Assembly (NCBI GenBank): GCA_020353515.1
Contig: CP070695.1
Coordinates: 505,173 to 569,172 of the forward strand
From: Candidatus Heimdallarchaeota archaeon
Lineage (GTDB): Archaea; Asgardarchaeota; Heimdallarchaeia; Hodarchaeales; Hodarchaeaceae
DNA: 64,000 nt
Direction of reading: 5' to 3'
A program made the position numbers and the translations under genes. Under the pieces are notes generated by a model. The model was given only the letters and a program-made list of their open reading frames with translations. It was not told the DNA's origin and did not search any database. This document shows positions 11,033-50,294 of the stretch, piece by piece (the first letter of the stretch is position 1; each line of letters starts with the position of its first letter).

Positions 11033-11136
11033 TTCTGTGATGACTAGTTAATGTAGTCTCAATTTGATATGTGCTTCCTAACATATATCAAAACAGCTCA
11101 ACTAGCTGTTCTTTCTTAATAGTCATCATACAGGAG
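11033..11136 (+). ncRNA. Putative structured cis-regulatory 5' leader (three-way junction)
   Basis: P1 11036-11046/11120-11130 (11 bp, one GU); P2 11063-11073/11082-11092 (11 bp); P3 11093-11098/11104-11109. The structure abuts the AGGAG RBS at 11132-11136. Confidence 0.55.
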
Positions 11137-11145
11137 TTTATGATC

Positions 11146-11412
11146 ATGAGCGAAAAAGATACACCACCATCAGATGTAGAATTGGCGAAAGGGAAAGAAG
11201 GATTAGAACACGTTGAAACTAAAGCAGCAGTTTCGGAACGTAAGGTAGTACTTGTATGTAATAAATGTGGTGCTGAGCAAGATTTCCCAGTCTGTGAGGA
11301 ATGTGGAGAACCAATGGATTTTGAAGAAAGAAAGTTCAGCTGTGCCTCATGTGGGAAAGACGCAGCAGTTCCAGCGCATTGTGGTGAGCCCATGGCTCCT
11401 AAAATAGTATAA
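11146..11412 (+). CDS. Small Zn-finger protein (CxxC...CxxC...CxxC...HC) with N-terminal beta-thymosin/WH2-like segment
   Basis: AGGAG RBS 9 nt before ATG 11146; 88 aa MSEKDTPPSDVELAKGKEGLEHVETK...CNKC...CEEC...CASC...HCGEPM. Confidence 0.8.
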   Translation: MSEKDTPPSDVELAKGKEGLEHVETKAAVSERKVVLVCNKCGAEQDFPVCEECGEPMDFEERKFSCASCGKDAAVPAHCGEPMAPKIV

Positions 11413-11486: not shown

Positions 11487-11501
11487 CTTTTATTTTTTTT
11501 C
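11487..11501 (+). terminator. Oligo-T archaeal terminator-like tract
   Basis: TTTTATTTTTTTT-type run about 75 nt after the stop at 11412, between convergent genes. Confidence 0.4.
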
Positions 11502-46918: not shown

Positions 46919-49900
46919 TTAATAATATTTCCCTCTCACTCTATTAACCCATTTACTTGTTTCAAGGACGACGAGAGGTATCAGAGCAGCCACAATGCAC
47001 AAAAACCAATCGCCAATGTCAAGTGCAACAATATCAACATATAAACCAAACCCCTTGATTAAATTCTGGGAGAGATCAGGGAGATACATTAAGAAAAGAT
47101 GGATAAGTAGAATTGAAAAAGCAAGAACATAGGTATACCAGTAAGAATCCTCTTTAACAGCTTTCAAGAGAGATTTATCAATACGTCTAATAGATAGAAT
47201 AATCAATGGGATGGCTATATATAAGATTGTATGCATGTAAGTCCGTGCTTTGGCATGATTCCAGCTTTGGGGTCTTAAATTAGGGGAAGCCACTTCATCC
47301 TGAAAAATAGGGATATAAAATTCTTGGTTGATGTTATTTAAAGGAATGAAACTGAAGTAAGTTCCGAAATAGACTACATAGATGACTGTTGCTAATGTAA
47401 TCGATGTCAATAATAATGTAAGAGCTAATCTTCTATTGAATATCCCCGCTGTATCTATTGGATCACGATCCATGATATCTTTGGGGATTCCGTCAATAAT
47501 TAAAGCCAGTGGAGGGAATGTATGTGCAATACCAAATATGTAGGCACGCTGAAGATGATCCATTAATTCAAAACCTGGAATAAACCCAGAGATAAACGAG
47601 GCACCAATGTAGCACCCTGCTTCAGCTAAATTTGCACATATATAAAAGAATATAATAACTCGAATCCTTTGAAAAAGAGCACGGCCTTCTCTGATTCCTG
47701 TCACAATAGAATTAAAGGAATCATCCGCAATGACGAGATCAGCAGCTTGTTTACTCACCTCAGTTCCAGCAATTCCCATTGCTATGCCTGCATCAGCCAT
47801 ACTTAGTGCAAGAGCATCATTGACTCCATCACCTGTCATCGCAACAACACGGTTTTGTTGCTGATACCGTGCAACAATAATTTGTTTATCCTGAGGCGCA
47901 ACACGGGCAAAAACTCTCGTATTAACAAAGTCTTGGTCAGCGAGCTCAGAAGCCATCTTTCCTTCATGTGTTTGATGTTGCTTCTGATAAACCATCCCAA
48001 TGCTATTTGCGATAGAAGATGCTGTAACAGGACTATCACCAGTAATCATAATAGGTACGATTCCTGCTTGAATTGTCTCATTTACAGATTCATCAACAAG
48101 GTCTCTTGGAGGATCCAAGACTGTAACAAATCCAAGATAAGATAGGTTGGTTTCAACTTCCTCTCGTTCTTCCTCACCCTTCTGTGGGAGCTTATCGATA
48201 TTTTTATATGCAAGAGACAATATTCTGTAACCTTGGCCTGCAAATTGCTCCGTATATTCCATTATCTTCTTTTTATCAGCATTAGTTAGAGCTTTACTCT
48301 TTTCTTTGTAACCAATCGAGTTACATCTGGGTAAAAGAACTTCCGTGGCACCTTTGCAAAAAATAACTAACTCAGAGTCTTTTGTGTTGAATACTTTACT
48401 CATGCGTTTTAAAGAAGAATCAAATGGATATTCTCTCTCCAGTTCATAGATTTGTTTAACCTTCTCTTTTTCAATATTAGTCTTGTTAAAAACTGCTAGT
48501 AGGGCACTTTCGGTCGGACTGCCTGTTCCAGTATATACATTCTGCTTCGTTGCCTCAATATATTCTTCAATGATTTCACTATCGTTGTTCAACATCCCAG
48601 ATGTAATTAGTGTTCCTAGAGAGGAGTTAAGTACAACGGGTTCCGATTTAAGGGATTTTGCTTCTTTTTCACCTATCTTTTCCATATCCTTGTCTAATTT
48701 CACAATTTTACCTTCAGGAGAATACCCCAAACCAGTAACATAATAGTGTGTGTCTGTAGTGGCATCCCAAATTCTTTTCACAGTCATTTGACCTGCAGTA
48801 ATAGTACCAGTCTTGTCAGAACATAAAATAGAAATCCTGCCCAAGCTTTCAATTGAAGCCAAGTTTCTAATGATCACTCGGTGTTTAGCCATAGCAAGGA
48901 CACCAGTAATTAAGATAATCGTAGTTAACAGGGGAATATTGATCGGAACTACACTCATGGCCTTGATGATAATGTTGCTAACGTCAAAAATTATTACACC
49001 AATGAGTTCTGTGGGCTTTTTTAAACTGAGTATTCCTTCTTCTAATTGATCAAGAATCCTCGCTCCTTGATAGATAATCAACATACTAAAGACAATAAGC
49101 ATTCCAAATGCTAGATAATTGCCGATAACATTGACTTTTTGACGTATAGGAATGTCTCCTGTGTTCAATTCTTCTAATTCTAGACTAATTTTTCCAAATT
49201 CCGTATTTCCACCTGTATTCACAACCATTGCTAAACCAGATCCCATTGTAGCAAAGGTTCCGTTGAAAAGCATGTTCTTTCTGTCACCAATTGGAGTTTC
49301 AAGTGCAAAAGGTGCTTCCCCTGTTTCCACTTTCGTAGTAGGGACGCTTTCTCCAGTTAATGATGATTCGTTAACCTGGAGAGAGCTTGATTTAATCACT
49401 CTAGCATCAGCAGGAATTTTATCTCCTTGAGCGATTTTTATGATATCACCTGGAACAACTTCCTCAGTAGGAATTTCCACCTCATTACTATCACGGATGA
49501 CACGAGCCTCTGGAGCTGCAAGTTTGTGAAGAGCCTCTATCTTTTTTTGCGCACGTGCTTGTTGAATGATCGCAATAAGGAAATTTACACCAACAATGAC
49601 TACCCATTGTGCCGCTGTAAACCAAATAGAGGTATCCGCAGGATCGATAAATAGATAAAAAAATGCTAAGAGAAAAATGAAAGATGTCATTATGAGATAA
49701 ATAACTATTAGTGTGTTTAACAACGGAGCTAAATATACCTGCCAGAAACTCTGTTTTGGTTTAGGAATTAAATTGACACCATATTTCGCCAATCTCCTTG
49801 ATGCATCGTCTTGTGATAATCCTTTTTCAAGATCCGAATCTAATTGCGAAACAAGTTCATTTAGCTCAAGTGAATGTCCACTAATAGCAGTGGGTTTCTG

Positions 49901-49921
49901 TTCTATGTCAATTATTGCCAT
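46919..49921 (-). CDS. P-type ATPase, P2-like scaffold with atypical membrane motifs
   Basis: TGES, CSDKTGT, KGA, DPPR, MITGD and TGDGVND motifs; about 10 TM segments; TM4 reads VVPINIP. Confidence 0.95.
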   Translation of the reverse strand: MAIIDIEQKPTAISGHSLELNELVSQLDSDLEKGLSQDDASRRLAKYGVNLIPKPKQSFWQVYLAPLLNTLIVIYLIMTSFIFLLAFFYLFIDPADTSIWFTAAQWVVIVGVNFLIAIIQQARAQKKIEALHKLAAPEARVIRDSNEVEIPTEEVVPGDIIKIAQGDKIPADARVIKSSSLQVNESSLTGESVPTTKVETGEAPFALETPIGDRKNMLFNGTFATMGSGLAMVVNTGGNTEFGKISLELEELNTGDIPIRQKVNVIGNYLAFGMLIVFSMLIIYQGARILDQLEEGILSLKKPTELIGVIIFDVSNIIIKAMSVVPINIPLLTTIILITGVLAMAKHRVIIRNLASIESLGRISILCSDKTGTITAGQMTVKRIWDATTDTHYYVTGLGYSPEGKIVKLDKDMEKIGEKEAKSLKSEPVVLNSSLGTLITSGMLNNDSEIIEEYIEATKQNVYTGTGSPTESALLAVFNKTNIEKEKVKQIYELEREYPFDSSLKRMSKVFNTKDSELVIFCKGATEVLLPRCNSIGYKEKSKALTNADKKKIMEYTEQFAGQGYRILSLAYKNIDKLPQKGEEEREEVETNLSYLGFVTVLDPPRDLVDESVNETIQAGIVPIMITGDSPVTASSIANSIGMVYQKQHQTHEGKMASELADQDFVNTRVFARVAPQDKQIIVARYQQQNRVVAMTGDGVNDALALSMADAGIAMGIAGTEVSKQAADLVIADDSFNSIVTGIREGRALFQRIRVIIFFYICANLAEAGCYIGASFISGFIPGFELMDHLQRAYIFGIAHTFPPLALIIDGIPKDIMDRDPIDTAGIFNRRLALTLLLTSITLATVIYVVYFGTYFSFIPLNNINQEFYIPIFQDEVASPNLRPQSWNHAKARTYMHTILYIAIPLIILSIRRIDKSLLKAVKEDSYWYTYVLAFSILLIHLFLMYLPDLSQNLIKGFGLYVDIVALDIGDWFLCIVAALIPLVVLETSKWVNRVRGKYY

Positions 49922-50294
49922 AAAGATCCTTCCTGCATGGTAAAATCCTTTTATAATATGGATATTGAATACTCTTATTTAATGATATTCACTTTTTCAA
50001 AAAACTCTGCTTACATATTCAGGTAGTTTCCAATAGTGGTAGTTCCCCCTGATTCTATTGTGTACAATATCTATGGAGAAGCGCTCTTCTTCAGTGTTTT
50101 AGGAACATACATTCCAGTAAGATCACTGAAAAACAAAGAACCAACTCTATTGTTAAGGAGTCTTTGAGTTATCTTTTTTTTATCTCAATTCATTTTTCTG
50201 AAAAGAAAAGTTCTTCTGTTAACCAGAATTCAACGCATAAAAATCAAAATATATGAACCTGAATTACTAGCCAGTACCAACGGATGAGATTTAA

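Follow-up and report, generated by a model that had tools for sequence, protein, structure and literature searches.

A conserved Asgard microprotein with a predicted docking tail on a copper-pump-type metal module, and actin as a possible partner

Introduction

The WH2 motif is defined by a short amphiphilic helix followed by an extended LKKT-like strip, the whole lying in a disordered peptide (PMC5792643). The strip itself varies, and LKHTET is the form present in an actin-sequestering thymosin of insects (PMC3284464). The actin regulators known from Asgard archaea are profilins and proteins of gelsolin type. Crystal structures show that the linker joining gelsolin domains D1 and D2 is a WH2-like strip in contact with actin (PMC9433394). 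The strip is written LKHV, LRRV, LVDV or LKDV depending on the protein (PMC9433394; PMC13716822), the LKDV variant being reported in PMC13716822 and in a preprint. In the LVDV variant, from a Loki gelsolin, the aspartate bridges a calcium ion to Asp25 of actin (PMC9433394). In the literature that we searched, WH2-like strips of Asgard archaea are mentioned only as parts of gelsolins; a WH2 or thymosin-like protein standing free is nowhere reported. Here we describe P0001, an 88-residue protein of Candidatus Heimdallarchaeota archaeon that places a conserved N-terminal tail, similar to the eye to such strips, in front of a Cys/His-rich module. Its gene lies in a stretch of 64,000 nucleotides (contig CP070695.1, positions 505,173 to 569,172 of the forward strand), henceforth the window, within a genome that forms a single contig of 4.94 Mb.

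The second part of the protein leads to quite another set of systems. Its relatives are the modules borne by Asgard CopA-type P1B ATPases and small free forms of 57-72 residues. The pair CopZ and CopA provides a functional analogy for the association of a free and a pump-borne module, while the family has no name. Our literature searches found no paper describing it. A first-pass annotation of the window had proposed that the tail is a thymosin-like binder of actin monomers, coupled to a metal- or redox-sensing zinc module. This interpretation stands in part: the tail is conserved, the host has an actin and the nesting of the metal module is supported. The expected match to the Thymosin and WH2 hidden Markov models (HMMs) did not materialize, and the likeness to thymosin at the profile level is weak.

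A conserved tail on a small Asgard protein

Positions 11146-11412 of the window (+ strand) translate to exactly the 88 residues quoted in the first-pass annotation. The protein opens with MSEKDTPPSDVELAKGKEGLEHVETK..., after which come CNKC, CEEC, CASC and HCGEPM. Its elements are as follows.

11146..11412, + strand: coding sequence of the 88-residue microprotein P0001, stop codon included (translation and conserved orthologues)
11146..11241, + strand: N-terminal tail, residues 1-32, predicted to be flexible (AlphaFold2, AF2)
11173..11199, + strand: short predicted helix, residues 10-18 (SDVELAKGK; AF2), with E12 and L13 conserved in at least 70% of the family
11203..11223, + strand: core motif L20-E-H-V-E-T-K26 (family conservation)
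11245..11409, + strand: predicted metal-binding module with two sites, residues 34-88 (AF2; homology to the CopA N-terminal module)
11257..11268, + strand: knuckle K1, C38-x2-C41, outer site (alignment and ligand counts)
11293..11304, + strand: knuckle K2, C50-x2-C53, inner site, H-C or C-C in most relatives (ligand counts)
11341..11352, + strand: knuckle K3, C66-x2-C69, inner site (ligand counts)
11377..11382, + strand: knuckle K4, H78-C79, outer site, followed by G-E-P-M83, where M83 is 95% conserved (ligand counts)

The family is of respectable size. P0001 has 13 close homologues (58-91% identity), the close ones being labelled Hodarchaeales, and a profile search of 1.84 billion representative sequences returned 53 proteins at E<=1e-3, themselves representatives at less than 50% identity. 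The family profile finds matches in 222 of 400 Asgard genomes. Full-length small orthologues are present in 9 of the 21 genomes of the genus and extend to several other families of the class, in one of which all 12 genomes have them. With a single exception the named members carry an Asgard label. That exception, P0189 (88 residues), is filed under 'candidate division Zixibacteria'. It shares the 90% cluster of P0052 with a record labelled Heimdallarchaeota, so that its label probably results from an error of binning or labelling. Judged by this distribution, the gene is that of a real, conserved Asgard microprotein.

Conservation of the tail is concentrated in its core. In the family alignment (A2, 42 sequences, identities down to 31%), L20 and T25 are at least 90% conserved, level with the cysteine ligands. 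The mean frequency of the majority residue reaches 0.80 for L20-K26 and 0.81 for the eight metal ligands, to be compared with 0.52 for the other columns of the module and 0.43 for residues 1-19. The first-pass annotation had made much depend on whether the N-terminal segment, and L-x-H-V-E-T within it, would persist in orthologues: both do, and the tail is kept even in distant families. On these frequencies the tail motif is an element conserved beyond chance. AF2 assigns a predicted local distance difference test score (pLDDT) of 55-61 to residues 1-30, against 84-91 for residues 31-88. Conservation combined with modelling makes it highly probable that the tail is a disordered docking peptide, on which selection acts as strongly as on the metal ligands.

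The consensus over 47 instances of the motif is L (41), E (25), H (36), V (37), E (39), T (40), K (29). The second position, where E is the most common residue, is K in seven instances. The cores of divergent members read LKETQTK, LAKTETK, LTHVETK, LKHVET, LKHTET or LKKTTT. In most members from outside the genus the helix upstream has three to four hydrophobic residues in an L-L-x-x-V-like pattern, and three to six residues, often with G, P or D, link it to the motif. As far as the aligned tails allow us to judge, this layout is, at the level of the family, the one by which WH2 is defined (PMC5792643).

The motif also appears in larger proteins. Seven longer relatives of 180-250 residues, from metagenomes (P0024, P0028, P0034, P0036, P0037, P0050 and P0051; loci L035 and L036) consist of a winged-helix-like domain, a stretch with the motif and then the module. 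They have one or two copies of helix plus motif upstream of the module, the two-copy members being P0024, P0028 and possibly P0051. These copies fall in the low-confidence stretch between the N-terminal domain and the module, and in proteins of P0024 type each is immediately preceded by a predicted helix. The N-terminal domain is predicted to have three helices and a beta-hairpin (pLDDT about 70-78), with weak matches to HTH_24 and HTH_28, and the proteins that carry it could be regulators. The extreme case is P0039 (L037:8001-8990), a protein of 329 residues from Heimdallarchaeaceae: six copies of the motif, 26-54 residues apart and exemplified by L-I-S-T-E-T-R-D-P-T, precede a single module. 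No motif is present upstream of the pump-borne and free modules. Across these arrangements the motif acts like a unit of its own, one that can be repeated.

Actin and gelsolin in the host

That the host might lack actin was another weak point foreseen by the first-pass annotation. The genome encodes one actin, of 380 residues (442 bits to PF00022). Cytoplasmic and muscle actins, along with that of yeast, are among its top PDB matches (E about 1e-160). Against the solved 'HC1 actin' (9wc4_A) its score is 718 bits, from which it follows that a near-identical actin from Hodarchaeales has already been purified and imaged. The residues of rabbit actin that contact WH2 peptides and gelsolin we take to be Y143, I341, I345, L349, D24/D25 and E334. 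In the actin alignment (A3) the host residues aligned to all of these are invariant among 45 Asgard actins, E28, D29 and E340 of the host standing for D24/D25 and E334. The binding site for WH2 or gelsolin on the host actin is therefore predicted to be intact.

The host also has a gelsolin, encoded outside the window.

contig 2119826-2121082 (L055), + strand: two-domain gelsolin of the host, open frame of 419 residues

Its D1-D2 linker reads GFLKHVEVNKED, which contains G-F-L-K-H-V-E-V-N-K-E-D. The two-domain part gives way to a long proline-rich stretch, and about 100 unassigned residues make up the C-terminal region. Searched over the six-frame open reading frames of the genome (2.29 million residues), the pattern L[KE]HVE[VT] occurs exactly twice, in the tail of P0001 and in this linker, and the looser [LF][KERQ]H[VT]E[VT] returns the same two sites. 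Another gelsolin of the Heimdall group has LTHVDT, and two orthologues of P0001 have exactly these six residues in their tails. The linker hexapeptide is all that P0001 and the host gelsolin share: the best 25 of 51 Pfam hits of P0001 hold sub-threshold zinc-ribbon matches and no gelsolin-homology domain (PF00626).

Compared with the linkers of two-domain Asgard gelsolins, the P0001 strip is alike, LEHVET matching LKHVEV of the host, both after a glycine. An acidic residue within the motif has a precedent in LVDV, which reaches Asp25 of actin by way of calcium. Unlike P0001, with its free peptide helix, gelsolin fills the actin cleft with the long helix of D1.

A nested metal module related to those of copper pumps

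Residues 34-88 very probably constitute a metal-binding module of copper-pump type, with two Cys/His sites nested one within the other. Each of the four knuckles has two Cys or His residues in P0001, which retains the full set of eight ligands, and the count is again 2, 2, 2, 2 in the majority of 81 members. Where ligands vary, their counts go together for K1 and K4 (correlation 0.53) and for K2 and K3 (0.48), in contrast to K1 and K2 (-0.06) or K3 and K4 (-0.04). One member lacks both K1 and K4, several keep a single cysteine in each of the two, and some have a loop in place of K2 and K3 while retaining K1 and K4; examples of such joint loss are P0049, P0052, P0057 and P0061. For two orthologues with His-His at K3 and at K4, it takes nested pairing to obtain two Cys2His2 sites. 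The 'nested double Zn-finger' of the first-pass annotation is thus supported: ligands disappear as K1 with K4 and K2 with K3, and the best fold match is the Cys-rich region of the helicase PriA. The repeated P-x-H-C-G-E-P-M had suggested to us two tandem desulforedoxin-like units (CxxC...HCGxPM twice), an arrangement dropped because the joint loss of ligands indicates nesting.

Fold comparison gives weak likenesses. Foldseek ranks PriA first: the Cys-rich region of this helicase (probability 0.96, E 0.12, TMq 0.36-0.38) is likewise nested, with four knuckles paired in the same way, and JGI names two family members 'primosomal protein N''. The likeness is weak and of fold only, and P0001 lacks a helicase. 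VIA likewise returns weak matches (Z at most 3.6), to Rpb9-type ribbons, to PriA (Z 3.5) and to desulforedoxin (1cfw_A, Z 3.0, root-mean-square deviation 2.7 over 33 residues). Pfam and NCBIfam offer P0001 sub-threshold zinc ribbons only, and the Desulfoferrodoxin N-terminal family is absent from the best 25 of its 51 Pfam hits. We also considered the zinc domain of Loki 2DGel proteins (PMC9433394), which Asgard archaea likewise carry as a small Cys-rich module, either terminal in a protein or free. Unlike the P0001 module, it consists of one CxxC...CxxC ribbon that has a Tyr loop. The identification was rejected: four 2DGel proteins scored 0.6-8.5 bits against the A2 profile with filters off.

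The kinship with copper pumps is much clearer. Aligned with hhalign, residues 1-70 of the host CopA match A2 at 96.9% probability (E 1.8e-10). The family profile also matches the C-terminal ends of P-type ATPases of about 960-1070 residues from another Asgard family, in which an E1-E2 ATPase domain with its HAD domain is followed by YHS/TRASH domains and then by the P0001-type module. The CopA gene of the host belongs to a small locus, again outside the window.

contig 4712438-4716551 (L049 covers part of it): cop-like locus of three genes

The pump, of CopA type and 937 residues long, starts with the module, continues with an HMA domain and has a CPC motif. A free module of 65 residues, without a tail, is encoded 20 nucleotides upstream; BLASTP aligns it with P0001 at 35% identity over 55 residues. 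The third gene, divergently transcribed, encodes a regulator of Lrp/AsnC type, 200 residues long, with a TRASH-like Cys motif at its end. At least seven genomes of the genus show the same association of a free module with the pump. A tail-less paralogue being stationed beside copA, the place of a metal chaperone seems to be already filled. P0001 resembles the pump-borne and free modules by homology, by its four knuckles, by G-x-P-M and, for the free forms, by being small and soluble. It differs from them in its conserved tail, in the absence of the W-M-G insert of pump-type modules, in a K2 that is CxxC rather than H-C, and in the location of its gene, about 4.2 Mb from copA on the contig and thus not next to a pump as that of a CopZ-like protein would be. 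From homology and gene position, the tailed P0001 is a diverged, unlinked paralogue of the pump-borne and free modules. The idea of a metal-sensing module, present in the first-pass annotation, fits with this kinship to the domain by which P-type ATPases of the copper type bind metal.

The module turns up in yet another setting. P0031, a metagenomic protein of 1045 residues with a weak match to PGAP1-like alpha/beta-hydrolases, has two of these metal modules at its C-terminus, which shows it to be a mobile end-domain.

Which partner for the tail?

Tentatively, we infer that actin is the partner of the tail, because WH2-like architecture, exact thymosin-type variants, repeat forms and the unique match to the host gelsolin linker favour it. 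The flexible docking tail (residues 1-33: short helix, Gly-rich linker, L-E-H-V-E-T-K) would dock on the barbed face of actin, its L-x-H-V-E-T strip running up subdomain 1 in the manner of the LKHVEV linker of gelsolin and of the LKKT strip of WH2 domains and beta-thymosins. P0001 would act as a small binder of actin monomers or filament ends, with the metal module serving either to place it under the control of metal or to add a further contact. A module of copper-chaperone type would in this way have gained a new partner-binding tail. With WH2 domains and beta-thymosins (PF02205, PF01290) the protein has in common a disordered peptide of about 25-30 residues, with a short helix, a short linker and L-x-x-[VT]-E-T, and some of its relatives have exactly LKHTET or LKKTTT as well as tandem copies. 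Unlike them, P0001 has Glu-His for the Lys-Lys of the LKKTET-type core, of which it keeps L, [VT], E and T; its helix is weakly hydrophobic; and its peptide is fused to a metal module, without the second, C-terminal helix of thymosin: seven residues past the core, P0001 enters the first strand of the module.

A series of observations weighs against an actin-binding tail. In a scan of the whole genome the Thymosin HMM (PF01290) has no match at the P0001 gene at E<=10 and none above the cut-off anywhere, and the WH2 HMM (PF02205) finds nothing at the gene. Applied to ten N-terminal pieces of the family, those of P0001 and nine other members, neither model gives a match at E<=10. A 31-column profile built from 45 instances of the motif retrieves four matches among 177,635 PDB sequences: a thymosin beta-4 construct (4pl8_H) comes second, aligned on LKKTETQEK with an E value of 0.91, which is not significant, and the unrelated N-terminus of RAD17 scores better (E 0.67). 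With an alignment of vertebrate thymosins, hhalign finds a weak relationship, at 31.8% probability for alignment A4 (P 4.9e-4, 13 columns) and 15.4% for A2, over 25 columns from Met1. The likeness to thymosins and WH2 peptides is suggestive and real to the eye; statistically it is not significant, and since the Pfam, PDB-profile and hhalign results are all weak, membership in these families is not shown. Some of it must even be put down to selection bias, because likeness to an actin motif was the reason for picking the site. In the P0001 subfamily the helix has no more than one or two hydrophobic residues, together with two glycines; that of P0001 itself, with V11 and L13, is the weakest of the set. 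The acidic patch of actin that would face the Glu of the motif is intact too, so that a Glu-His motif would meet an acidic surface, which should disfavour the classic contact through lysine unless a cation bridges the two. Across five other genomes we observed no co-variation of the tail motif with the linker motif of gelsolin. In 83 genomes of the class we found no instance of the motif outside the P0001 module family, nor any relative of P0039, which is known from a single contig. There are neither actin nor copper genes near the P0001 gene, nor around three of its relatives, whose neighbourhoods differ from one another: gene neighbourhood is not conserved and gives no genomic link to actin. 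Finally, the kinship of the module points to the handling of metals, not to the cytoskeleton.

This last point opens the way to the most serious competitor, in which P0001 is an accessory of metal homeostasis, a soluble carrier or sensor whose tail docks on something other than actin, be it the pump, the Lrp-TRASH regulator or another metalloprotein. We rate this alternative as about equal in likelihood to actin binding, and equally tentative. The module is homologous to that at the N-terminus of the host CopA and to those that follow YHS/TRASH domains in the larger ATPases; no ligand position has been lost in P0001, and M57 and M83 are conserved at 81-95%. The forms that join a winged-helix-like domain to the module recall the copper regulators of archaea in which a helix-turn-helix domain is combined with TRASH. 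All this accounts for the module but not for the tail, known copper chaperones docking via a folded domain. Moreover, the genus already has its tail-less free module directly upstream of copA, the P0001 gene is unlinked to any metal gene, and in P0048, P0057, P0060 and P0061 the module is reduced to one site while the tail remains intact. A role within the molecule, with the tail folding onto the module as a lid, or as an autoinhibitory strand, according to the metal load, is less likely, and we regard it as improbable. The tail always lies directly N-terminal to the module, its S-E-R-K-V-V-L segment continues straight into the first strand, and a metal site could be within reach of the conserved His22, Glu21 and Glu24. 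Yet AF2 leaves the tail unpacked, at the low pLDDT given above, many members have K, E, R, S, Q or P instead of the histidine, and pump-borne and free modules manage without any tail. Two or six copies of a motif on a single module cannot all be lids.

The tail might also be some other conserved signal, a degradation tag, a site of modification at T25 or a contact with nucleic acid or the ribosome, its resemblance to actin-binding strips being a coincidence. Short peptides of helix plus strand are common, and the RAD17 match shows that an unrelated protein can satisfy the motif profile as well as thymosin does. This explanation is unlikely: nothing positive speaks for any specific alternative of this kind, and it leaves without a cause both the match to the host gelsolin linker and the exact LKHTET and LKKTTT variants. 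Much further down the scale, hardly to be believed on present evidence, is common descent, with the tail as a true homologue of eukaryotic beta-thymosin or WH2, representing an ancestor of that fold in archaea. Over 25 columns the MS[DE]K start, the helix and L-x-x-[VT]-E-T-[KQ] do align with thymosin beta-4, and the family is restricted to Asgard archaea among named members. The hhalign probabilities of 15-32%, the silence of the Pfam models and the metal module standing where thymosin has its second helix all point the other way. So short a motif can converge, and descent is not demonstrable from some 13 aligned columns.

The locus

Two further elements frame the gene.

11132..11136, + strand: Shine-Dalgarno-like AGGAG, 9 nucleotides before the ATG at 11146 (read off the sequence)
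11488..11500, + strand: T-rich tract with a run of eight T, 76 nucleotides past the stop codon (read off the sequence)

An in-frame ATG is present upstream, at 11140. One orthologue has I-I-M at that spot, and this, together with the distance of AGGAG from the ATG at 11146, argues for the latter as the true start; initiation at 11140 is unlikely. The T-rich tract could be an archaeal terminator of oligo-T type. The G+C content of the region, about 36%, matches that of the remainder of the genome. The neighbours, named from their translations, are an acetyl-CoA-synthetase-like gene, a transporter of MFS type, a convergent permease and a MeaB-like GTPase. Some 36 kb from the P0001 gene, an open frame of 1019 residues (window 46922-49978, - strand) encodes an E1-E2 ATPase domain; it lacks a CPC-type motif, which makes it a P-type ATPase of a non-copper class.

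Concluding remarks

It is possible, though doubtful at this stage, that the tail is a working actin-binding peptide. P0001 would then be the first free-standing WH2- or thymosin-like binder of actin monomers in archaea, with an acidic-His strip, coupled to a copper or zinc module. It would use an acidic-His version of LKKT, perhaps bridged by a cation, and it would link metal status to actin dynamics. The two-motif relatives with a winged-helix-like domain could be actin-sensing regulators in the manner of MRTF, and P0039, with its six motifs, could be a nucleator in that of Spire or Cobl. An actin structure from Hodarchaeales (PDB 9wc4) and strains of the order now in culture (bioRxiv 10.1101/2025.02.26.640444) make the hypothesis directly testable. 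If the tail does not bind actin, the family would still be an undescribed one of Asgard archaea, in which a two-site module of copper-pump type is combined with a docking peptide. If it does, a third class of regulators would join profilins and gelsolins in the closest archaeal relatives of eukaryotes, and the gain of a docking tail by a small metal-binding module would be a plausible route for the origin of such peptides.

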